Part shown: positions 1 to 12,463 of the stretch, in pieces
How positions within the stretch are numbered: position 1 is the first letter of the stretch
Layout of the letters: the number at the start of each line of letters is the position of its first letter
Assembly: GCA_963745235.1 (NCBI GenBank)
Contig: CAVUXE010000078.1
Span: 1 to 12,463 of the forward strand
Length of the DNA stretch: 12,463 nucleotides
Direction: 5' to 3'
Origin: an uncultured Spirochaetota bacterium
GTDB lineage: Bacteria > Spirochaetota > Spirochaetia > SZUA-6 > Fen-1364
The notes under the pieces: model-generated
What the model was told of the DNA's origin: nothing
Seen by the model: only the letters and a program-made list of their open reading frames with translations
Database searches by the model: none
Made by a program: the position numbers and the translations under genes

Positions 1-47
1 ATGTTAGGGTATTCCGGAAATTGTGAAAGCGTGAAATAATCTCTCTC

Positions 48-1539
48 ATGGGAGGGGGCCATAAGAAATTCTCGCGCATCGGGCGCGAGCAAATTCTCAA
101 CGCTTATCGGGCTGGGCCTGATGCCATCGTCTCGTTGATCGACTATCTGCAAGAGACGCTTTTGGGAATCATCGAAGAACACGAAGCACGGATCGAAGAG
201 CTTGAAGCGAAGCTCAACAAGGACAGCCACAACAGCGACAAGCCGCCTTCCACAGATGGACCGAAGCGAAGGTTCACCGCAAAGAATCGAGAGCGCAGTA
301 GCAAGAAACCTGGCGGTCAGGAGGGACACGAGGGCACGACGCTGCGGATGGTAAGCGATCCAGCCCAGGTGGCAGTTCATGAGGTCAAACGCTGTGGGCG
401 TTGCGGCAGATCGTTGAAGGATGTGAAGCCACGAGGCTACCTCCCACGGCAGGTTTTCGATATCCCTCGCATTACTGTGGCGGTCACCGAGCATCGAGCG
501 CAGATCAAACGCTGCCCTCACTGTGGAGAGCTTTCCCGGGGAGAGTTCCCTGAGGGGGTGACTCACACGACCCAGTATGGAACGCGCCTGAGAGCCTTTG
601 CGGTGTACCTGAAGAACTATGGATTTCTCTCCTATCAACGGACCGCCGAAGCGTTGTCAGACTTGTTCGCCATTGCTGTGAGCGCGGGGACCCTCGCCAG
701 CACAGATGGTCGCTGTGCCCAACGTCTGGAAAGGGTGGTGGAACAGATCAGAGAGAAGCTTGTTCGGGCGCCGGTGGTGCATTTCGATGAAACAGGACTG
801 AGCATCAACGGGAAGTTACACTGGCTCCATGGGGCGAGCAACCCAGCCTTTACCTATTACTTTCCCCATCAGCGTCGCGGCCAGGCAGCCACCGAATGCC
901 ATCGGGATTCTTCCGCGGCTGAAGGGCAACGCGGTCCACGACAACTGGCAGCCGTACATGAAGTACCGCTGCCGGCATTCGCTGTGTAACGCCCATCACA
1001 TTCGGGAACTCACCGGCATCTATGAACTTGACGGCCAGCCGTGGGCGCAACACATGATCGGTTTGCTTCTGGAGGGCAGCCAGGCCGTCGAGGGTGCAAA
1101 GAAGGCGGGAAAGAAACGATTGACCGCCGGTGTGTTGCACGGATACATCAGTCGCTACGAGACGATTATTGCCGCTGGAATGAAGGCCAATCCTCCTCCT
1201 ACTCGTCCAGAGGGTTGTTCACGCCGAGGACGTCTGAAGAGAAGCAAGGCCCGCAACCTCTTGGAAAGATTGGCAGAGCGCAAGAAGGAGACACTGCGCT
1301 ACTTGTACGATTTTCGAGTGCCCTTTACAAATAACCAAGCCGAGCGTGACATTCGCATGATGAGAGTGCAACAAAAGGTCTCTGGGGCATTTCGCAGCAA
1401 CGCGGGCGCTCTCGCGTTCTGCCGAATACGAAGCTACATCTCCACCATGCGCAAGCACGGCAAGTCAGTGATTGATGCCCTCATCCGAGTCTTACAGGAG
1501 GATGATCTGACGCTGACAAAGTGCCTTCAAACCAGCTGA
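48..1539 (+). CDS. tnpC: IS66-family DDE transposase (single-ORF, ISBst12-like), split by one +1 frameshift near 890-895
   Basis: ORF 48..989 has an N-terminal coiled coil, KDSHNSDKPPSTD, a Zn-ribbon (CGRC...CPHC), YGTRL and the catalytic HFDETG. ORF 829..1539 continues with AVHD, LCNAHHIREL and PFTNNQAERDIRMMRVQQKVSGAFRS, all typical IS66 TnpC motifs. Removing one base in GCC-ACCG-AAT-GCC joins them as RRGQAA(T)NAIGILP, about 496 aa. Confidence 0.93.
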
Positions 1540-1546
1540 ATAGTTA
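1535..1546 (+). repeat. IS66 right terminal inverted repeat (terminal C displaced to 3568); contains intron IBS1 TAGTTA (1541-1546)
   Basis: It overlaps the transposase stop TGA (1537-1539). The reverse complement of the reconstituted end is GTAACTATTCAGC, matching the IS66 GTAA start. Confidence 0.75.
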
Positions 1547-1754
1547 TCGCGCCAAGCAAAGCTTGGGAAAGGAGGATGCTCAGCATGTAGGCGGAAACCT
1601 TTCATCGTGACCCTGTTGGTAACCAATCCAACACAGCAAAGCTTGGCCAGCAGCTGGAAGTGAGTCTTGCGTGACCACAGGCGACTGTGGCCATGAAGCG
1701 TAGACAACGATCGTAAAAGCCGTGCGATTGAGCCTCGATAGCAGCCATGCGGGA

Positions 1755-1782
1755 GTCTTCGCAGTTAACTATGCGGGGACAG
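1755..1782 (+). other. Intron domain Id3 hairpin with EBS1 (TAACTA, 1766-1771) and putative EBS3 (G1782)
   Basis: The 9-bp stem GTCTTCGCA/TGCGGGGAC (two G-U pairs) closes the loop GTTAACTA. TAACTA is the exact reverse complement of TAGTTA (1541-1546). G1782 would pair with the first 3' exon base, C3568. Confidence 0.82.
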
Positions 1783-2159
1783 CACCGAAGCGTCGTAATG
1801 GCCCGACGTGGAGGTCCCGCCGGGGTCGGAGAACAGGGCAAATACGAATAAGGGTCACCCAGGAACTTGGGAGATCTCGTTGATTCCATGCCTTCGGAAA
1901 CTGGACGAGGGTCACCAGAGAATGAACCCCTGGCCCATGGGCAGAAGCGTCATGATGCCCATGCGGAGCGAAGAACAAAGACGCAGGCTGCAAATGGTAT
2001 TGCCGAGCGAAGGAAACGAAGCGAAGCGAAACGGTCAACGAGAAGTCGTAGCGCCTTCACAGTACCGCTGAAGCGGGGGAACCAAACCCAGCAGGAACCC
2101 CGTGGAGGGAAGGGAGGCGTCGGGTCATAGAGCTGTCGGTGGGACACACGGAGGATGCG

Positions 2160-3471
2160 ATGGAATCCACAGACGTGTCAACGAAACAACGGCGGATAAC
2201 GGAACTCGCGAGGATTCATCCCGAGGTGAGTTTCACGTCGCTGGCGCATCACATCGACCTGCGATGGCTGTACGAAGCTTACCTCCGCACGCGCAAGGAC
2301 GCGGCGGTGGGAGTGGACGGACAGACAGCCGAGGAATACGCAAAGGATCTTGGGGGTAACCTCAGGAGCCTACTGGAGAGGGCGAAAGCGGGAACGTATG
2401 TCGCTCCTCCTGTTAAGCGCGTGTATATACCGAAGGGCACGAAAGGTGAAACACGTCCGATCGGTATTACCTCCTTCGAAGACAAGGTGCTGCAACGTGC
2501 AGTGCAGATGGTGCTGGAACCGCTGTACGAGCAGGAGTTTTTGGACTGCTCGTATGGATTTCGGCCAGGGCGGTCAGCCCATGATGCGTTGCGGGCACTT
2601 CGGGACGGGCTGATGAAGATGGGTGGCGGGTGGATAATTGATCTTGACATACGAAAATTTTTCGACACTCTCGACAAAGGCCACCTTAGAGAGATCCTCA
2701 AGAGGCGGGTGTGTGACGGGGTGCTCCTTCGTCTGATCGGGAAATGGCTGAATGCTGGAGTACTGGAGGAGGGAGGGGTAAGCTACCCTGAGCGGGGGAC
2801 TCCACAGGGCGCTGTGATTTCACCAATCTTAAGCAACATCTACCTGCACGATGTGCTGGACAGATGGTTTGCAGAGGTGGTGAAGCCGCGCCTGAAGGGT
2901 GATGCGTTCCTGATTCGGTTTGCGGATGACGAGGTACTGGTGTTTGCGCGCAAAGAGGACGCCGAGCGGGTGATGGACGTGCTGCCGAAGCGATTTGGCA
3001 AATATGGCCTCACCATTCATCCCGAGAAAACTCGGTTGATATGTTTCGACAAGCCTCAGAAGCGCGAGGGAGGGACGGTTGAACCACCTCGGTGGGCGAA
3101 GTTCAATTTTCTGGGCTTCACACACTACTGGGGGCGGAGTCGATAAGGCGCGTTGGGTCGTGAAGCGAAAGACGGAACCGAGTCGCTTTACTCGGGCGCT
3201 GAAGAGTACCTGTGAGTGGTGTAGGCGTAATCGCCATCTACCGCTTAAGGATCAACAACGTATGCTCACATGGAAGCTCAACGGACACTACGCGTACTAC
3301 GGGATAACTGGAAACTCGCACTGGATCAGCAGCTTCTTCTACGAAGTCAAAAGAGCGTGGCGTAAGTGGCTCATGCGTCGCAGTCGCGGGCAATACATGC
3401 CCTGGGAGCGTTTTCTGCAACTGCTCCAGAGGTATCCACTCCCTGCAGCTCGGATAGCGCACTCTTGTTAA
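2160..3471 (+). CDS. ltrA: Group II intron reverse transcriptase/maturase, split by one +1 frameshift near 3144
   Basis: RT motifs AAVGVDG, RVYIPK...[56 protein letters not shown] and FNFLGFTH. The X/maturase domain continues in ORF 3079..3471 ([23 protein letters not shown]). Junction is CGA-T-AAG-GCG-CGT-TGG. GGAGG (2150-2154) precedes ATG 2160. No HNH domain. About 436 aa when repaired. Confidence 0.95.
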
Positions 3472-3492
3472 GCAGTGAAACTATGGCCCGAA

Positions 3493-3567
3493 GAACCGTA
3501 TGCGTCGAATCGCGCACGTACGGGTCCGTGGGGGCTCTGGGCGAGGGATCGCCCAGAGCTACCCAGC
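3493..3567 (+). ncRNA. Group II intron catalytic domain V and branch-point domain VI
   Basis: The 34-nt DV GAACCGTATGCG-TCGAATCG-CGC-AC-GTACGGGTC has the AC bulge and an AAC triad. The DVI stem GGGGCTCTGGGCGA-GGGA-TCGCCCAGAGCT-A-CCC has the bulged A at 3561. Confidence 0.95.
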
Positions 3568-3650
3568 CCTTTTTTCCTTTTCAATTCATTTATAGACTAC
3601 AGCTCGTGCGCCTACCGATGCATGCCATACTTTCAACTTCCTCCTACAGT

Positions 3651-3805
3651 CACGCGGCAGTCATCCCGTCTGTGGCCAGAAAATGCGTATGGGGTGAGGC
3701 GGCCACAAGGCCGCCGGATCGACAGCGCGCCAGCGGCTGGCGCGCTGTGCATACGCATTTTCTATTCAGCCCCAAACCATGACGGCGGGGGCGGCCGACG
3801 GCGTG
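3651..3805. repeat. Nested palindromic/structured intergenic element of unknown class
   Basis: A perfect 14-bp inverted repeat (3678-3691/3750-3763) encloses a 7-bp hairpin (3698-3715) and a 13-bp perfect palindrome (3722-3748). Imperfect outer pairings are CCGTC/GACGG and CACGC/GCGTG. Confidence 0.7.
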
Positions 3806-3866
3806 GCAAGATTCATAGCTACATTTCAGAGAGACTCGAGTTCAATCCGGTGTCTCGGACGCTAAA

Positions 3867-5000
3867 CTACTCCCACCTTTCTTCAAATGACGGATCTTTT
3901 GCCTTTGCTTCTTGAATCTTCTTTTCCCATTGCGCCTTGAGGCCTTTGTTGTTCCACAAGAGATCCACTGTTTCATACTCTTTCAATGGCTTGGCATTCT
4001 TCAGATCGATATCAACGAGATAGACTTCGATCTTCCCTTCTTTGAGCACCTCGAAGTACAACCCATCCTTGCCAAGGTAATACGAGAAGGAAACTGCTTT
4101 TTTCCCATCTGAATCGTCCATCCCATGCCAGATCGAATACAACGCGTCTTCTTTCAAATCGTAGATCAGGACATGCCAGGGATAGAGAGTTTTCGGAAGG
4201 GTGATAGTAGGATTGCTTCTAAAATTGGACATTAGAACAAAATAAACGTAATTTTGATTTGCCACAGATTGATTGCTAAATGTCAGCATGTGAGTATAGA
4301 TAGGAGAGTAGTTGCTCGTAAAGGGTAGAACAAGATCATGTGTAATGGTTTCTTGTGCCCAATCGAGAACGAATAGCTCAATATCACGATCCGCCTGTAT
4401 ATAGGAGAAATCAGATTTAGTTGCGACTGTTGATGATAGAAAAACCTGATTTGCTCCTGCGTCGACATCTTTGGGGTTCATAATGTACCCCGCCTTCGCT
4501 TTTCCGGCTGACTTAATGATTACTCCGTTGTTTTCCAGATCCAGTCGCATGCCCCCCTTGGATTCACTCTTACGTTTGGTGTAGTATCCCCAGAAATTTT
4601 CATATGCTTGCTTGCTGAGAGCTGTAACGACGTCAATCTTCTTGCTTCGCTTATCGAAAGTAATCCCTGCAATTCCTTGGGCAGAATCACTGTTACCTAA
4701 GTTTTCAAGCGTGTCAAAAAAAAACTTCGAGTCATCGTCGTTGGTAAGTCGTAGAAACTGATAATTATCCTTGAAATGATACGTATTGTACATGAACGGA
4801 TAGCGATCAGTTAGCGGAATTTCCACCAATCTCTTTGCTTCAGCAGTAAGCGAAAACAGTCTCTCCGGAAGATGAATGACTCGCGCGCCGCGAAAAAGCT
4901 CCTCGTATAAATCGGTTAGTGTTGAGGCACTTAACAACGGTCTGGCGAAGACCAAGAGCACTGAGAGCATCAAACCAATAAGGCGTCTTTTTGAACTCAC
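3867..5000 (-). CDS. Exported hypothetical protein (~377 aa, Sec signal peptide); candidate cognate immunity protein
   Basis: Long ORF (track 3867..5057). A better start is GTG at 5000, with GAGGG 7 nt upstream, giving MSSKRRLIGLMLSVLLVFARPLLSA-S (basic n-region, hydrophobic core, LSA cleavage site). It begins 37 bp after the stop of the giant gene and is visibly AT-richer than its neighbours. The immunity role is inferred from context only. Confidence 0.75.
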   Translation of the reverse strand: MSSKRRLIGLMLSVLLVFARPLLSASTLTDLYEELFRGARVIHLPERLFSLTAEAKRLVEIPLTDRYPFMYNTYHFKDNYQFLRLTNDDDSKFFFDTLENLGNSDSAQGIAGITFDKRSKKIDVVTALSKQAYENFWGYYTKRKSESKGGMRLDLENNGVIIKSAGKAKAGYIMNPKDVDAGANQVFLSSTVATKSDFSYIQADRDIELFVLDWAQETITHDLVLPFTSNYSPIYTHMLTFSNQSVANQNYVYFVLMSNFRSNPTITLPKTLYPWHVLIYDLKEDALYSIWHGMDDSDGKKAVSFSYYLGKDGLYFEVLKEGKIEVYLVDIDLKNAKPLKEYETVDLLWNNKGLKAQWEKKIQEAKAKDPSFEERWE

Positions 5001-5037
5001 TATATTTCCCTCGGCTAGATCGCTATCTCCGTTCCGC

Positions 5038-5700
5038 TTATCGTTTGGAAGATTCAATCGTCCACCAGGGCTTTACAGTCGCGAAATTGTAACCTTGGTT
5101 GAATTGTTTTTTCCAATTCGCAAAGTAGCTGCTATTGACCAACATGTTGACGTATTTGTCGTTGCCAGACAAAAGACTAGGGTCTGTCCAACTCCCAAAC
5201 GCATTCTCTCTCGGACCTGCTCCATATGTCGTCCCGCCTAGCGTCAGCCGCGGTGCACTATGTATCAGCAGGTTTTGCCCTTCATCATTGATAGCATAAA
5301 ACCCAACATGCCCCTGCATGAAGACGAGGTCTCCTACCTGAGGGGTGTCGCTCCATGTCTTTCGATCATCTCCATAGGCAAGCAACACGCCCCCCACGTA
5401 CTGGTTCGCCTGCTTCTTGTCGGCAACCATCTGAGGCCACCCGCCATATAGGAAAGTGCGACTTAGCCCATTTGCCACAATTCCCGACTCCGTGTCCAAC
5501 TGAGCAGCATGCGCTGATGCGTATTCCCTCGACCATATGCCAACCTCAGTTTTGTTGCCCTTGACACTGGCATTTAGAGCTTGCCCGGCCTTTAGGGCGC
5601 CGGACGCATACAGCACTGTGTTGACATATCCAATGCAATCCAGCGATGGGGTACTAGTCGGTGAACTAACCCATGGCCCATTGAAATACCCGGTGATCGC
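5038..5700 (-). other. C-terminal NlpC/P60-like (papain-fold) cysteine peptidase domain
   Basis: Catalytic-pattern residues: D-C (Cys codon 5635-5637), GDLVF..GHVG.Y (His 5308-5310) and IH (His 5260-5262). These match the NlpC/P60 DCSG / PGDLVF / HVGIY / IHA signature. Confidence 0.75.
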
Positions 5701-8700
5701 CTGGCCATATCCTGGGCCTTTGAGATTGAAGTTCATGTAGTACTGCGCTCCAGTCAGATCGCCGGCGATGGCCCCAGTCCTGTCGTAGTTAATATTGAGA
5801 TATTCCCCCTCGTACGTCCGCGCCACATCGTTGATCAAATACCCGTTCGCATTTCCCGCTCGTACCACGTCCTCCGATGCGAGATTCGCCAGGAATAACG
5901 CCCCTGAAAGCCCATTCATCCCGTTGCTGCCGCGGAACACGTTTGTCGTGTACTGAAGCATGTCGTGGCTGAGGATGCCTCCGGCAGCAAAGTCCGTGGA
6001 GTCCTTTAACGCATCACGCAGGCCGCCCAGCAGCGCAAACGCACTGCCATAGGCTTCTTCAGACAAAACGCCGGCAGTGAAATTGGAGAATGTACCACTG
6101 TCCCACAGAATGTCAGCTATCTTTCCTTTGTCACCTGATTGAACCAGATAATCCCAAAGCTTGTTGGATTCCGTATTCGTGCTTGTTATAGCCCGTCGCA
6201 ATTGAGTCTGCGCAAGGACCCCGAGGTCCTGTGCCGGCGTCTGGTCGTACACCCTTCCACTTGAGCTGACAGGAAGGCTAGCGATCTGCGCGTCAAGCAC
6301 AAACCCATAGCCGCCGGCCCCTATCTTGCGCAGCATGCTTGCGCCCCAGGCGAGCCCTGTATCCTCGTATCCGGCTCCAGTCACGCCCCACGCCTTCATC
6401 AAATCGGAATACGCACTGGTCTCCGTCATCCGTGATTCGAACTCATCTTTCCCTGCCAGGTGCTTGGCTTCATGAGACATGATTGATGCAACTTGCGCGG
6501 CCCCTTCTTTTCCTCCGCCAAGCAGCTTGGAGTTGACATAAATCGACTTCCCGTCATCTCCTGCATAGGCAAGCGCGGCAAGGTCCTGCGTTGTGACCGC
6601 TGGAGTGGATGCGTTATAGTAAACGACATTCTTGTTCCCGTTCCAAATATCCTCCGCCAACTGATAGTTATCTTTGTTGTCGGTGTAGCCAAGCCCATTG
6701 GCCGAGTTCAATGTCGTAAGTGCAGTCTTATCCCCCTGCAGGTTTTCATACTTCGCCTCGGTGATCTTATACGATTCGCCAACCCCGCCCATGCTCGAAG
6801 CGATTGTTCCCAAGCTGACATTCGTTCCATTACTGCCCAGGTTCATGCTGAACCCTTGCTTTGCTCCCAGGTGCATCTCCAGCAGTCCGTAACCCCTTTC
6901 GCTGCCAAAGTCAGCTATGTTCATCAGGTTCAACGTAGCGTCTCCGGTCATCCCATATTGTATACCCGTTGAGACCAGGCCTCCCGTCAGGTTGTTGAAG
7001 CTACTAATCCCTCTCGTATTGAACACATTACTGCTGAGGATGGTGCCATTCCCATCCACCATGTTCGCCATGCTCATCAGCCCGCTGGTGAACGCGCTTC
7101 CTGAGGCCCCTGCAACGCTCGCCCACGCTCCTGTCCCAAACGACCCCGTGAGGAACGCGTCCTTGTCCCACCCAAGCTTGCCGTTGCTCCAAGAGAACGC
7201 GCTGAGCGCGCTGGTGGCAGTGTTCGTCGTAAAACCTTGCGCCCCGGCCAGCAGCGCCTTCCCGATGGGCGCCTTGCCGAAATCTCCCAAGGCTCCTGCG
7301 ATCCCCCCGACCTCCTTCGGATTGAACCCGTTGAACACGCCCCCTACCGTACTCGTCGCCGCGCTCGTCAGGAAGCTCTTCCCTATATCCAGCCCTGCCT
7401 CTTCCCATGTCTTGTAGCCGCTCACCACATCCAGCGTGTCAAACAGAAGCGTGCTTGATGTGCTTATCGCGGCAGTGGCCGCGATTCCGGCAATCCCCCC
7501 GATCCCTCCCGTTGCCAGGGTCGCTACCACCCCTGCGGCTATCGATCCCACGGTTCTCAAGCTTGGGGCTTTGAACCAGCTGCCCGGTGTCGTCCCAGAG
7601 CGCCTTGTCCCACGTGGGCTTCTGCACCTCCGACCAACCCCGCGCCTCCTTCGTCTGATTCCAGATGAAAGCGCCCATCAGGCGCCCCAATTCCCCCTTG
7701 CCCTGCACAACTATGTTGTCGTTCTGAGACTTGTCGAAGTCAGGTTCGTTGGCGAACTCTGGCGAATACCCCACCCACTGCCCAAACTCCCCCTCCCCCA
7801 GCTCCTTGGTCTTCGCCTCTCCGTTTGCTGTGATTTCGAACACAAGCCCCTTGGCCCTCTTCTCTGCGTCCGTGAGCTTCTTCCCTTCCCCGAAGATCCT
7901 ATTCTGCTGCTCCCCGACTTCCTCCTGCGCTATGCCGACAAGATCCATCACCGCCCCGGCCTCGAGACCGTTCAGCCTCCCCTGGCTCAAATCCACTTTC
8001 AGCTCCAGCCTCGGCATCGCATACCACCGGTACGCCTCTACCCGCTGCGTCTCCATTATGAGACCGCTGATGAGCGTGCTCCGTTTCACTGCCTCCCGCT
8101 TGTACTCTCCTCCGCCCGTCCCGTACCCAACGGTGACAAACACCTCATCCATGCTCTTCTCAAAGCCTTTGTTCGCTTCCTTCACACTCTCAGAAAGCGC
8201 CTTCTTCGCTTCCTCCACGCTCGTTCGGGCATCATCTGCCAACCCCCGAGCCGCCAACGCCGAGAGCTCCTTCCTGCTTGTTGCGATAAAGCGCTTCACC
8301 TCGCTGGCAATCCGCGCGCCACTGGTGTCCGCTCCCAGTTTCCCGCTGGCCACCGTCACCGACTCTGGCGCAATCCCCGAGCTCATCCGCTTCAGCGCCG
8401 TAAGTGACTGTCCGCTCCCTACTTCCGCAAGGAGCGTCTGAACCTTCGTTGTGGCCTCCTTCGGGTCATAACTTATGTCCCCGATCAAAAGCGTGCTCGC
8501 GCTTCGCGAACTGTCATCCGCGCTTGCACCCACCTCGCCGAGAATGGCCTCATTGCCTGCCTTGGCTGCCTTCTCCCGCGTGGCTTGCACCCAATCATCC
8601 TTCTTCTCCACGAGGCCAAGGTAGGCAACGTTCCACGCATCACTCTTGTCGCAATATTCCTGCTGGAAGCCCTCCCGCCACTGTCCAAACGCTTCGAGCA

Positions 8701-11700
8701 GCTTTTGCTGGCTTTCATCCCAGGCGCTGGCCGCCTTGGCCCGAACAAGACCAACTTGTGCGTACCAGGTCTGTTGGCGGCTGCCGAGGTCCTGCACGGA
8801 TTGACCCCACTTTTGCTCCAACTCCGTCTCGCGGGATTTGAGCGCTCCTGAATAAACAGAAAGTACGGCCTGGGCATAGCTTTGAAGCGCGTTCATCCTG
8901 GTGTTGGACTCGGAGTCGTTGAGCAGTACGCCAGCAGAGAATGCAGCGTCACCAAGGACGCCGGACAGGAGCTCTTGGTCAGCCTTTGCGACCCACAGTG
9001 AATCCCTATAGGCACTCTTTGCAGCTGCCAACATGTCAGCTTTCGTCCCGGTCCCCGCGACATAAGCCTCGTAGGCGGATCGATAGGCTTGCTGCGCATC
9101 CGCTGCCTTCGCCTCCGCTGCCTGAGCTGCGAGTACGGTCTTCCCACGAGCGTCTTCAGCATTCACACTTGCCACAACAGTCATCTCTTGCAGCGCTTTG
9201 CTGAAGGACACCTTGTCTTCCGCCGCGAGCACACTCCATGCCGAGCGGAATTGGGCCTCCAGCTCGGAGGAGACCCTCGCCAGGTCGGTTGCAATGCCCT
9301 GGCTCTGGGCGGCTAATTTTCGATACTGCGACAGGAAGTCCTCCACGGAAGTCAAATGAGCCCCGTCAGTCCCTCTCAGCTCGGCAAGCCGTGCGCAACC
9401 GGACTCGTAGTCACGCCTTGCCTGGGTGAACGTTGATATTGAGCTTCCAAGGATGTTTGGAGAAAAGCCATTCAGGAGGGTTTCAATGTCCCCCTTCTTG
9501 TTGTCAAGGGCACTTGCTTGCCCGGTCCAATCCGCGACAGCGTCCGAAATCCAGCCGAATGGAGCACGGCGGTTGGCGCGAAGCCTCTCTATGGTATCCT
9601 GCAACCTCTGCGTAAGCATTCGCAAGGCTGAAGCGCTTGTTCGGGAATTGAACTGGTCAAACTGATTTTCGTTTCCGCCAGCGCTCGCTATGCGGACTGC
9701 AAAATAGAACTCGAATGCGTCCCTTTCATCGGCGTTCTCCATTACTGCCGAGTATTGAGACTGGGCGAATGTCACTGCGGCTCTCAGACAGTCGCGGGCG
9801 GCGCCTCTGAGATCCTCACCGCTGGTGTGGATGTCCAGGTAGTTGTTGTCTCGCATGAATTTGTCGTCACTTTGATAATTTTCGAGATAGCCCAGCGACC
9901 CGCTCCCGTTGCTGTCATACAGCCGCCGCTTGAGGTAATCTGCAGCAAAGCCCCAGCGGTCAATCAGTGCGCTCATGCCGCCGAACTTCGCGGCATAGGT
10001 GTTCACAGTTGTCTGCCATGCTTCCATCTGGCGCTCGAAGTCACTCTTTGCGGCGGCCTCCGCGGGATCCCCGCCCTGAGCTTCTCGGACGTCGAAATAG
10101 TCCTTGACGGTCTGCCACTCATCCTTGGTCTGCTGCGCGTGCAACTTGAAATCGACGGAAATGTCCAACGATAGCCGACCATTCTGGAAAGTCAAATAGC
10201 TGGTCCAGTTGCCTGCTCTTTCTGTTTCGTCATCCGACCATGTGAGGTTTGCATCCACCCGGGACCCGTCAAGAATTGCATCCCTCGCTTTCTGGAGCGA
10301 CTCGAACTGTTCTTCGACCTTTTTCCCCTGTTCCGTGGTTGCCTCATCCAATTCGCCGGTGACTCGCTTCAACCGCAACAGCTCGGCATAGCTCGTTTTC
10401 CATGCGTCATATGCGGCCAGAGTGGCTGCGTCACCAATCGGTCTGTCCGTGACAGGTGACTCGCCGTACAGTTCTTTCAGCGCATCCACCGCCGCTGCGG
10501 CACGAGTGAGCTTCTCGGAAACATCTGTCTGCATCTGCACGGGGCTCTGGTAGCTTTGGGCCGCTTCTCCCCGCGAGGTCAGGTAGCCGTTTGAAGCCCA
10601 GTCTTGTATCTCCTCACTGACCCGAAGCATGAAGCGCGCTTTCTCCAGGCTTTCCGAAGATATCTGCAATTCAGCGTAGGCAGTGTTATAGAGGGCTCCT
10701 TGTCCCTCGAAGTCCCCCAGCGCCGTATCAACCAAGACCTGCTTGTTTGCCACCTTTATTGCAAGATTATCCGCGCTGTTCCTCAGCTCATCCAACTCTG
10801 CCTGGCGCTCTTCACTACCCAGGTCCAGGAACTTCAAGGCTTCTCCGAAGCGGCGTATGTCATCCTTCAGCGACTGCACCTTGGCAAGCTCAGAGCGATA
10901 TGCGCCCTCCGCCGCGTTCACTTCCTGCTCGCTCGACACCGGCAGGTCGCTCGCCTTGGCATTCCCGGCCGCGAAGGCCTCCAGGAATGAACGAAATCGG
11001 GCCACGGAACCGCCATCATCCCTGGTTGCCGCAAGCTGACTCACGAAAGCATTTTCCTGTTGCGCGAGGGAGTTGAACGCATCAAGGGTGACATTCTCTG
11101 CGGAATCCGAAACGCATTGGACATAACCGTTCCCGTCCCGTGTCTGAGCGCTGGTTGCGCTTTCCACAGTCACCGAAGTTCCGACGTTTCCGGTCAGGTA
11201 CACGCGCCAAGAGGTGGCCTGGCTGGGTTGCCGTTCCACCTGACGCCAATAGGACGCTTCGGCTGAATGGACAGCCGACTTGCTGCTAAAATCCACGGAC
11301 GCCAGCGCAAGCTCTTCCAGGATCATCTGCCCTGCAGCGTCAAGCTTCGAAGCATTCATCTGATCGTACCAGCTCAGGTAGTCGGCGTTCGAGCCTGCAG
11401 CAAAAAGATCATCATTCCATTGTCCGGCGGAAATTGAGGCCGCGAGTGCGTCTCGAGACATGAAGTCCCCGCCCAGAGACTGCGCGTAGGCTTGGGCGTT
11501 TCCGTCCAAGGCAGCGACATATCCCCGGACCTTCCCCAGCATTTCCTTGAACTGATTCACTTTCTCAGTAGCGGCTGAGCTCTTGGCAAGTTGTTTTTCG
11601 AGGTCTTCAGGAATCGAAACGCCTCGCAGAACAAGGTTCTTGCACAAGTACTCGACTGCGAGGTCTCCGCTTCCTGAGAAAGCGGTTTGCTCCAGTTGAG

Positions 11701-12463
11701 ACGCTGTGCCCGCGAAATCAGCTGCGTCTGCTACGCCGGTTATCCCCGTCCGATCCAGCAGGAAACTCGCGAGCTGCCCGGCCTGATACAGCGCCACTGG
11801 ATTGCGAGGCGACTGTCAGAGCGATTGCTCGTTGGTAGACCGGTCCCGCAGCTCCCATGGCTGCGAGCGATGACAGACGAGCATCAAAGTCACTTCCAAA
11901 CAAGAATCTGCGGAAAAGGGCATCCCGATCGTCAAGACCATACGCCAACTGCGAGCAGAGCTGCTTGATCTGATCCGATGCGGGACTGCTTTCGCTGAAA
12001 CTTGCAAGGTAGCCGGCGAGGGCTTCGCTCAATAGCTGTTGGCTGGACCAGGTCTTCGAAGCAACTTCGTCCCAAAGTCTCTTCACGTCGGCGGCAAAGG
12101 AGCTCACAGCGAGTCCCGCGATTGCCTGAGACACACTGAGGGTGCTCCAGGTTCGAAAAGCGGCGACCCGCTCGCCTGTTGGTCCTTGACCCTTTTGGGC
12201 ATCAAGCAGTTTCTGAGCTTCAGCAGCGATCTCACTCGCAAGCATGGTTGTCATTCCAGGCGCGAGATCGGCGGCGATGCTCTGAAGGGAAATCGAAGGA
12301 TCAGCAAGCGATCTCTTTGCAGCCTCAATAGCCCCTGAGTCGACGATGAGATCATGGGCGGACGCAGCCGAAGCGGACGGCTTGTCGTTTCGAGTGTACA
12401 ACTCCATGAGCGCCGAAAGGCGGGATCCCCCTTGGAGCTCCTCCGCCAGCGTTCGAAGGTTTG
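5038..12463 (-). CDS. Giant protein (partial, at least ~2470 aa, two +1 frameshifts at ~11795-11810 and ~7584); putative polymorphic toxin with HExxH motif and C-terminal NlpC/P60-like peptidase
   Basis: ORFs 11718..12407, 7439..11797 and 5038..7560 overlap end to end. The first frame stays open to the window edge (NLRTLAEELQGGSRLSALM). Deleting one C of CCC at 7583-7585 gives LWDDTGSWFKAPSLRTVGSIAAG. The body is Ala/Glu/Gln-rich and helical. The C-terminus has LDCIGYVNTVL...PQVGDLVFMQGHVGFY...LIHSAP. Confidence 0.8.
6420..6560 (-). other. Zincin-like metallopeptidase motif within the giant protein
   Basis: SIYVNSKLL strand, then helix AAQVASIMSHEAKH (HExxH at 6460-6474), then DEFESR providing a candidate third ligand Glu. 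Confidence 0.6.

Follow-up and report, generated by a model that had tools for sequence, protein, structure and literature searches.

The window studied here is the whole of a 12,463-base contig (C78) from the assembly of an uncultured Spirochaetota bacterium (GCA_963745235.1, here G000; 5.85 Mb in 104 contigs, completeness 85.7%, contamination 5.87%). Its minus strand carries the 3' part of a giant gene and, directly downstream, a gene for a 377-residue protein (Table 1). An earlier reading, made from the letters and a list of open reading frames (ORFs) and called here the sequence-only reading, had proposed that the two encode an interbacterial cell-wall toxin and its exported immunity protein.

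Table 1. Features of the window. Positions were worked out by arithmetic from the search outputs, and the limits of the Trp-rich block are approximate.
Feature	Position	Strand	Remarks
Giant gene, 3' part (two thirds)	5038-12463	-	About 2,470 codons; 5' end beyond the contig end
Frame break 1	11779	-	One extra G compared with contig C20; in the 9-mer GCTGCCCGG (plus strand)
Frame break 2	7585	-	One extra G compared with contigs C20 and C95; in the 9-mer GCTGCCCGG
Trp-rich block	~7573-7702	-	In the family-conserved core; W76 and WDxKLWDD nearly invariant
Gly/Ala-rich hydrophobic stretch, ~38 residues	7441-7554	-	Mean Kyte-Doolittle value >1.4 in 19-residue windows
HExxH motif	6460-6474	-	First His and Glu nearly invariant in the family
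Variable tail: helical linker and hydrolase domain	5041-6459	-	Similarity of relatives breaks off
Likely NlpC/P60-like papain-fold domain	5068-5856	-	Weak Pfam score, conserved residues, low-confidence model
Candidate triad	Cys 5635-5637, His 5308-5310, His 5260-5262	-	Conservation in relatives
Stretch without blastn match, window compared with C95	4179-5251	-	Flanks 98.7% and 93.3% identical
Downstream gene, 377 residues	3867-5000	-	GTG start at 5000, signal peptide, predicted beta-propeller-like, low G+C
Spacer 3' of downstream gene	3568-3866		Common to C95 (inside the 93% match); ends at the group II intron insertion
Group II intron	1541-3568		Rfam RF02005 at 1623-1835; reverse transcriptase ORF at 2139-3146
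IS66-family transposase	26-1540		DUF6444, zf-IS66, DDE_Tnp_IS66; split into overlapping frames 48-989 and 829-1539

Three minus-strand ORFs follow one another in the window, at 11718-12461 (open at the contig end), 7439-11797 and 5038-7560, and two single-nucleotide repairs join them into one frame of more than 2400 residues, just as the sequence-only reading had described. Two other contigs of the same assembly carry near-identical copies, C20 matching window positions 5205-12463 at 99.0% identity and C95 positions 5252-8363 at 98.7%. The C20 copy is uninterrupted across both break sites (one 1,947-residue frame) and the C95 copy across the second one (one 1,108-residue frame). Within the assembly, the N-terminus is visible on C20 only; the gene begins there at 20342, its first residues look like a signal peptide, and near 23770 it has a frame change of its own. 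Since the C20 pieces are collinear with an intact relative of 3,613 residues, P0151 (67% identity over residues 1-1131 and 64% over residues 1131-3005), the full giant gene should have about 3,650 codons. In total, the 5' end of the gene occurs once in the assembly, its middle twice and its 3' core three times. Contig C20 terminates exactly at the point where the copies begin to diverge, with eight small indels in its last 1.7 kb, and the pattern of the three contigs agrees with co-assembled strains forming an assembly bubble or with a duplication of 3' parts; as there is a single 5' end, the copies may be alleles of co-assembled strains rather than paralogues.

The 9-mer GCTGCCCGG occurs just twice in the window (7579-7587 and 11773-11781), and each copy holds one of the two frame breaks. 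Contigs assembled from independent public runs are one letter short at these sites, those from runs X7 and X8 at 7583 and that from X7 at 11777; all three public contigs that span a break site (two at 7583, one at 11777) thus lack the extra letter, one of them being otherwise identical over 279 letters, and the contigs from runs X1 and X2 do not reach either site. Because both the sister contigs and the independent public contigs lack the extra G's, the breaks are probably errors of assembly or consensus and the gene is probably intact. Over both strands of the whole genome there are 255 copies of GCTGCCCGG and 831 of the version with one G fewer, and similar one-nucleotide differences are seen elsewhere in the assembly, in the group II intron copies and in a split AcrB gene. 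The breaks may represent a consensus error linked to the motif, for example at a methylated site, in which case other genes could be affected, a matter of concern to any user of the annotation of this assembly. If the breaks were real, the window copy would be a dead gene and the protein would be made only by other copies or strains: both breaks are present in the assembled sequence, the contig has a group II intron and an IS66 element at its flank, and in the C20 copy eight more small indels lie close to the 3' end, with one frame change further upstream. We consider a dead gene improbable, as each break is a single extra G inside the only two copies of the 9-mer in the window, the spanning public contigs lack it in three cases out of three, one-nucleotide differences recur in other multi-copy elements and an AcrB gene of the assembly, and neither stop codons nor larger lesions occur in 7.4 kb.

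The scaffold of the giant protein starts with an N-terminal domain after a Sec signal peptide and continues with a helix-rich body, the Trp-rich block, the Gly/Ala-rich hydrophobic stretch, a region rich in Gly, Ser and Thr, and the HExxH motif, which is followed by a helical linker and a domain holding the sole Cys of the last 1,109 residues. The sequence-only reading had given the order as helical body, Trp-rich block, Gly/Ala segment, HExxH and NlpC/P60-like end; the coordinates agree with it, and the last element has weak though consistent evidence behind it. By composition, the body up to about residue 2,600 of the intact relative P0151 has a high content of helix formers (42-58% AELKMQR) and a low one of P and G (7-11%), and it has no internal repeats. 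The Gly/Ala-rich stretch is unique of its kind in the last 1,109 residues, has a conserved position among relatives and, judged by its length, would be long enough for a two-helix membrane hairpin. Around the HExxH motif, the family alignment shows hardly any variation at H, E, G and an E further downstream; the region matches Pfam M48 at E 0.024, under the cut-off, and a profile search with the core that bears it gave no relatives in PDB.

As had been said of the part visible in the window, Pfam detected no Rhs/YD, haemagglutinin or RTX repeats in any piece of the giant protein, nor did it detect a recognised trafficking module (type V secretion TpsA, Rhs/PAAR, LXG/WXG, MafB-N, etc.) in any of the pieces or in the 16 + 32 relatives scanned. 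The scaffold has no match among the Pfam and NCBIfam models. Sequence and profile searches of solved structures with the 1,108-residue C-terminal piece and with the core profile returned nothing, and the N-terminal domain had no usable matches in the protein atlas. The suggested likeness to TIGR04388 (Lepto_longest, cut-off 45 bits) is not supported: the model matched none of the giant-protein pieces, none of nine relatives and nothing in the whole genome, control genomes also being silent.

The terminal domain is likely NlpC/P60-like, as judged from conserved residues, weak profile scores and a structure model. The window tail matches PF00877 at E 0.009 and 16.4 bits, below the gathering cut-off of 23; its close relatives L010, P0042 and P0132 score 19.0, 20.4 and 21.6 bits, and two other tail classes exceed the cut-off (P0137, 31.4 bits; P0092, 24.3 bits). 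In the alignment of the last 253 residues, each of the six rows has His164 and His180, and the Cys55 column is identical in all five rows that cover it, so that the NlpC/P60 order of Cys, then His, then a third polar residue is present and conserved in window-type tails. The AlphaFold model of the last 541 residues has a mean pLDDT of 55. In an all-against-all VIA-align comparison of this low-confidence model, 19 of the best 50 rows were NlpC/P60-type or wall-hydrolase domains, with Z 5.4-6.9 and a root-mean-square deviation of ~3 Å over 106-142 residues (Z <8, below the level of a safe fold match). Foldseek found no matches of the tail model at E<=0.001, the NlpC-type tail profile found nothing among solved structures, and hhalign of this profile to P0137 aligned just 17 residues around the Cys, with a probability of 1.8.

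The intact 1,108-residue C-terminal piece was searched against 1.84 billion cluster representatives, of which 600 were found at E<=0.001 and 252 at E<=1e-30. Among the best 150 relatives, 64 are at least 2,400 residues long, and most of those 64 have signal-like N-termini, as judged by eye. The relatives are collinear across the whole length, the ~420-residue N-terminal domain being conserved. The match of most of them to the query stops at residue ~527 or ~640-660 of 1,109, around the HExxH at 630, and beyond it they carry 330-620 unmatched residues. Similarity to relatives with other tails stops just after HExxH or ~100 residues ahead of it, and the ~450 residues following the motif are exchanged among relatives. 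For example, the intact protein of locus L005 (3,631 residues) and the C95 copy share 57% identity over residues 3-632 and nothing beyond, and relative P0153 is 53% identical to that copy right to the end. In the pair of C95 and L005, a 350-residue core is 66% identical and the last 260 residues are unrelated (E 0.1); in the pair of L005 and L007, the core is just 34% identical and the termini are related (E 9e-13).

Single-linkage clustering of complete tails put 129 of 133 into one group because their first ~130 residues are shared, and the classification was therefore confined to the last 260 residues. BLAST clustering yielded 28 classes in 136 proteins, which is an overcount, since profiles link classes 2-7-9-25, 0-3 and 5-10; by profile there are at least eight unrelated tail groups. 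On a quick core tree (FastTree), where kin share tail labels, the 28 classes need 73 changes; this number lies between the minimum of 27 and the 95-108 changes of 200 shuffles, so the tails are partly inherited and often replaced. The M23-tailed L005 is nested within an NlpC-tailed clade with local support of 95-99. Every tail that Pfam can name is a peptidoglycan hydrolase, in keeping with the cell-wall target proposed earlier. Peptidase_M23 is above the cut-off in L005, L007, P0019, P0099, P0131 and P0088 and below it in L021 and P0110; NlpC/P60 is above it in P0137 and P0092 and below it in the window's own class; N-acetylmuramidase in P0145 and Peptidase_M15_4 in P0094 exceed it too. The tail of P0108 matches a PHROG endolysin family. 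The class consensus sequences contain the patterns Cys...His (classes 0, 3 and 5), HxGxD...HxH (classes 4 and 7) and H...SDGC (class 1), presumably like those of papain-like amidases, LAS/M23 enzymes and YkuD L,D-transpeptidases. Searches of solved structures with the tails of L024, L023 and L006 gave nothing, and with that of L008 only chance-level rows.

The gene directly downstream varies along with the tail. The NlpC-type tails of the window, C95 and L010 are followed by members of one beta-propeller-like family of 13 proteins, and three more of these proteins come from contigs equal in length to those of the NlpC-tailed giants P0151, P0152 and P0153, which are taken to be the same contigs. 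The M23 tails of L005 and L007, themselves related, precede mutually related leucine-rich-repeat (LRR) lipoproteins, and the M23 tail of L021 precedes a small M23-like protein. Downstream of the related tails of L024 and L026 there are F5/8-type-C domain proteins, 43% identical, and downstream of the L008 tail an FGE-sulfatase-like protein. Signal or lipoprotein N-termini were recognized by eye in 10 or 11 of 12 partners. Two hallmarks of polymorphic toxins are therefore seen: C-terminal domains that are unrelated in close relatives although the N-terminal part is conserved, and a directly downstream gene that varies with the C-terminal domain, the latter with few independent swaps and one exception, L021. 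The comparison of C-termini and downstream genes had been proposed in the sequence-only reading as a check of its model, and its outcome supports it.

The stop codon TAA of the giant gene (5038-5040) is separated by a gap of 37 nt from the GTG start of the downstream gene, which has a GAGGGA box ahead of it. The G+C content is 43% in the downstream gene, 57% in the giant gene and 61% in the genome, and the N-terminus of the downstream protein is signal-peptide-like by eye; its earlier description as an AT-richer signal-peptide gene 37 bp away was accurate. The protein belongs to no Pfam, NCBIfam or PHROG family. Its own family has 13 members (12 besides it) of 299-390 residues, every one unnamed or 'hypothetical', with a highly conserved C-terminal third. 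The structure model is nearly all beta (pLDDT 67, pTM 0.66), and the recognisable titled rows from Foldseek and VIA-align are nearly all beta-propellers, with TM values of 0.14-0.28 and Z 6.3-8.3 over ~180-240 residues; leads to propellers in the protein atlas were weak, with scores <0.9. A complex prediction that paired the mature form of this protein with the C-terminal 253 residues of its giant neighbour scored 0.00, which carries no weight for or against binding. The product of the downstream gene is a candidate immunity or inhibitor protein.

The window and C95 differ exactly at the junction of the two genes. The stretch without blastn match (Table 1) covers ~70 residues at the C-terminus of the giant protein and ~300 at the N-terminus of the downstream one. 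In the hydrolase, the last ~70 residues are ~45% identical by alignment count, compared with 81% over the last 253 residues; in the partner, the first ~300 residues are an estimated ~40% identical, the whole protein is 51% identical, and the last 73 residues are the same. The G+C content of this cassette is 43-48% in a 61% genome. Public contigs cover the gene body and hardly 4089-5244, and nothing is drawn from that gap. An exchange of one enzyme lobe together with most of the neighbouring protein would show the pattern of a matched enzyme-inhibitor pair.

The upstream neighbourhood is visible on C20, where the giant gene is the last in a row of co-directional genes for an M23 peptidase, two TPR proteins, a 163-residue ORF, a TolC-like outer-membrane efflux protein (OEP), an HlyD-type adaptor, two Ig-like Big_5 proteins and two AcrB-type transporters of the resistance-nodulation-division (RND) class, the first of them split. 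The stand-alone M23 peptidase, the two TPR genes and the 163-residue ORF ahead of OEP lie at 4225-5271 and 5883-8493 (locus L028). The order TPR-OEP-HlyD-Big_5-Big_5-AcrB-AcrB-giant gene recurs in L029, L030 and L031, with cores 34-79% identical to that of the window, and L033 has the same order minus the AcrB pair. Each of the five operons scanned has a TPR gene ahead of OEP, and every one of the six loci with enough sequence has an OEP gene upstream on the same strand, at a distance of 11.7-11.9 kb in C20, L007, L008, L010 and L023 and of 4.4-5.7 kb in L024, which lacks the AcrB pair. AcrB is the immediate upstream neighbour in seven of nine loci, L019 and L024 being the exceptions, and in L030 its stop overlaps the start of the giant gene. 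Together, the outer-membrane factor, the HlyD-type adaptor and the AcrB-type transporter, all above their Pfam cut-offs, have the composition of a tripartite RND efflux system. This machine could, as a tentative proposal that we think somewhat less likely to be right than wrong, be the export route of the giant protein. The delivery route had been called unknown; the upstream genes now provide a conserved TolC/HlyD/AcrB operon as a candidate, so that this word is no longer fully apt.

The order of helical body, hydrophobic stretch and hydrolase also resembles that of tape measures with lytic domains, and the giant gene might be a remnant of a phage tail or of conjugation, i.e., encode a tape-measure-like or polyvalent protein with a lytic domain. 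In the N-terminal part, residues 245-426 (L003:6343-9987) match PHROG 22272, a phage family of 4,080 positions and unknown function, at E 5e-8, a match that may be compositional or may be a link to giant phage proteins, and the one tail similar to a PHROG endolysin family has been named above. However, tape-measure PHROGs matched none of the 15 proteins scanned, the surrounding 12-20 kb of six loci hold an efflux-type operon instead of phage or transfer genes, and the protein has an N-terminal signal peptide; in addition, ~3,600 residues is far above any tape-measure length known to us. Such an origin is therefore very improbable. A prophage tail or tape-measure module had been named in advance as fatal to the toxin model, and it did not turn up: the neighbours are efflux-type, Big_5 and TPR genes.

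The search with the core profile, built on a five-row alignment, found spirochaete labels (Treponema, Spirochaetaceae, Spirochaetales, etc.) on 20 of 23 loci, which bears out the earlier suggestion of giant hypothetical spirochaete proteins. Of the remaining loci, one is on a 3.5-kb contig binned as Tannerellaceae (L011), one belongs to an unclassified bacterium, and one, heavily frame-broken and 50% identical to the query, lies at the end of a 706-kb contig assigned to Bathyarchaeota (L025). For L011 and L025, mis-binning or a chimeric join seems more likely than transfer. The distribution is patchy, the giant gene being found in 9 of 40 related genomes, in 4 of 20 of the same genus, and in 3 of 17 high-quality genomes with G000 counted in. 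Near-identical pieces are present in eight metagenome runs from four studies of soil, peat and freshwater sediment (0.23-0.47 of sampled words in each). All names given to family members by their sources are 'hypothetical protein'. A literature search, supplements not covered, found no published description of the family or the operon, and the text of a preprint on giant genes (10.1101/2023.11.21.568195), as far as reached by a term search and again without its supplements, does not mention spirochaetes, Treponema, M23 or NlpC.

Beyond the spacer, the window and C95 diverge again. The group II intron is inserted just past the spacer, where C95 has a gene for a 183-residue signal-peptide protein ending in ...GYRF. 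Two more copies of the intron, on C44 and C22, are 99.7-99.8% identical, and the reverse transcriptase frame is whole in C22 only (472 residues). The IS66 element has a partial copy on C5 (99.4%) and about eight relatives at 67-70% on other contigs. Downstream of the C95 copy (L004), a PIN-like small ORF (2681-3106) and two incomplete copies of one serine-hydrolase-like ORF (730-1557 and 3382-3876) with a common end of ~90 residues were noticed by eye.

Several of these data would suit a protein that serves the producer itself. The giant protein could be a housekeeping or conditional envelope protein, a periplasmic, helix-rich scaffold that brings a hydrolase to the cell's own wall, for example in growth, septum splitting or the passage of a large envelope machine, with the downstream protein to regulate or inhibit it and the RND/HlyD/OEP proteins as partners that span the envelope. 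All nameable tails are wall hydrolases of kinds that bacteria use on themselves; the protein has a signal peptide and, in Pfam scans, no recognisable surface-anchoring or receptor-binding domain; another M23 peptidase gene heads the C20 operon region; and four loci (L008, L023, L024 and L026) have folD and miaB-like genes downstream in common, as seen by eye, a conserved chromosomal context. Yet the gene is present in just 9 of 40 relatives and 4 of 20 same-genus genomes, tails of unrelated folds replace one another between close relatives with the partner gene changing alongside, the G+C content of the cassette is far below that of the genome, and two alleles in one assembly differ exactly at the hydrolase end and most of the partner. 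Because of this patchiness, the swaps of tail and partner, the low-G+C cassette and the allele differences, conflict fits better than housekeeping, and we hold an envelope function to be unlikely.

The protein could also be a surface-exposed or released lytic enzyme for feeding, i.e., for the lysis of prey or the use of wall debris in necromass and not for combat with kin, with the downstream protein protecting the producer in transit. This explanation draws on the same evidence of export, hydrolase tails and a protective partner, and the near-identical pieces in soil, peat and freshwater-sediment metagenomes agree with it. However, feeding would impose no obvious selection for a rapid exchange of tail and partner between close relatives, and there are neither carbohydrate- or wall-binding modules in the protein nor uptake genes in the operon, which makes this role quite unlikely.

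We therefore arrive, as an even call, at an antagonistic system: the giant gene and the downstream gene would, from their sequence and arrangement, encode a polymorphic cell-wall toxin and its immunity protein on a new scaffold. A number of observations weigh against it. First, the NlpC/P60 assignment in the window has a score below the Pfam cut-off and rests on a model with pLDDT 55 and Z <8. Second, 26 of 32 tail representatives have no Pfam family, the 28 tail classes are too many, and no nuclease, deaminase or pore-former was found among the tails seen, unlike in classical polymorphic toxins; with wall hydrolases only, a self-directed wall enzyme with its regulator also fits. Third, part of the co-variation of tail and partner is inheritance, as kin share labels; clear independent swaps are few (L005; L024 compared with L023), and the M23 tail of L021 precedes an M23-like gene and not an LRR gene. 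Fourth, in an assembly with 5.87% contamination the three copies may come from co-assembled strains, and the window copy may be a real pseudogene. Fifth, the common folD/miaB-like context points to a stable chromosomal site, not a mobile island. Finally, we know of no RND pump that exports a protein, no search having been made for one.

If the toxin reading is right, the following mechanism could be envisaged. The giant protein would be exported by Sec, and the tripartite RND/HlyD/OEP machine would then pass it to, or anchor it at, the cell surface. On contact, the hydrophobic hairpin would insert itself into a neighbour's outer membrane, the HExxH module would cut the tail loose, and the tail, here a putative NlpC/P60-like endopeptidase or amidase, would digest the neighbour's peptidoglycan. 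In the producer, the periplasmic beta-propeller-like downstream protein would block the hydrolase. Contact-dependent killing specific to spirochaetes, with an RND-type route, its Big_5 and TPR proteins included, that takes a giant helical protein out of the periplasm and displays it at the surface, hairpin insertion, HExxH cleavage and swappable hydrolases each with an exported antidote of its own, is somewhat unlikely as a whole; if true, it would be a secretion route new to description, a 'phage tape measure without a phage'.

The competition of spirochaetes with other bacteria is little known, and the family is absent from the curated libraries scanned. Should the toxin reading be true, the family would add to the polymorphic toxins not only a new scaffold but also wall hydrolases paired with inhibitors, in at least eight unrelated tail groups by profile, and possibly the first RND-type tripartite machine that handles a giant protein. 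The logic of a toxin with an adjacent immunity gene is already known (PMC3482391). The scaffold, its restriction to spirochaetes, the wall-hydrolase-only repertoire, the HExxH boundary and the linked RND-type operon were not found in the scanned libraries or in the literature search, supplements not covered, and appear to be new.

Polymorphic toxins such as CdiA, Rhs and MafB were surveyed by Zhang et al. (2012; PMC3482391), and, as far as the parts of that survey consulted go, the giant protein is similar to them in its long conserved N-terminal part and a C-terminal domain exchanged by recombination, in the small directly downstream gene that varies with this domain, and in the occurrence of differing alleles within one population. 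It differs from them in the absence of Rhs/YD, haemagglutinin, PAAR, LXG and MafB-type parts, its scaffold having no Pfam or NCBIfam family; in the nearby export genes, which are TolC/HlyD/AcrB and not those of the type V, VI or VII secretion systems; in the nameable tails, all of which act on peptidoglycan, with no nucleases or deaminases seen; and in the boundary, formed here by the HExxH module. Boundary motifs of polymorphic toxins include VENN and DPxGL. Giant proteins of the TIGR04388 type are likewise very long and poorly understood proteins of spirochaetes, but the model does not match the giant protein.

Tripartite envelope pumps and the type 1 secretion of giant adhesins offer a parallel to the operon, and MacAB-TolC is described as exporting virulence factors (PMC8277102, PMC5985334, consulted in part). 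As in these systems, the genes of an outer-membrane factor, an adaptor of the HlyD type and a transporter of the inner membrane lie next to that of a giant exported protein. Unlike in them, the transporter is an AcrB/RND pair instead of an ABC protein, the giant protein carries a Sec signal at its N-terminus and lacks RTX repeats, and the operon also holds two Big_5 proteins and TPR proteins.

Tse1, an amidase effector of the Pseudomonas aeruginosa type VI secretion system, digests peptidoglycan and is inhibited by Tsi1, its immunity protein in the periplasm, which forms a partial beta-propeller (PMC3391265, seen in part). The window pair likewise combines a hydrolase that is likely papain-like, of the NlpC/P60 type, with an exported partner, all-beta and propeller-like by its model, which is encoded next to it and may bind it. 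Tse1 is a small stand-alone effector fired by its secretion system, whereas the hydrolase here is the tail of a ~3,600-residue protein exported by Sec, and no sequence similarity was found between the two pairs.

In the tape measure pb2 of phage T5, according to the parts consulted of 10.1101/2022.09.20.507954, a coiled coil is followed by 46 hydrophobic residues thought to enter the outer membrane, by a cleavage site and by a muralytic metallopeptidase domain released into the periplasm; the tape measure of TM4 also carries a hydrolase motif (PMC1796659, likewise seen in part). The giant protein resembles pb2 in its helical body, ~40-46 hydrophobic residues that would suffice for two membrane helices, putative processing site and muralytic domain. 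It differs in being a non-phage protein with a signal peptide, three times longer, with a swappable tail and a partner gene and without a match to tape-measure PHROGs. The best analogy for the C-terminal third of the giant protein may be pb2, and that for the pair of tail and partner may be Tse1 and Tsi1.

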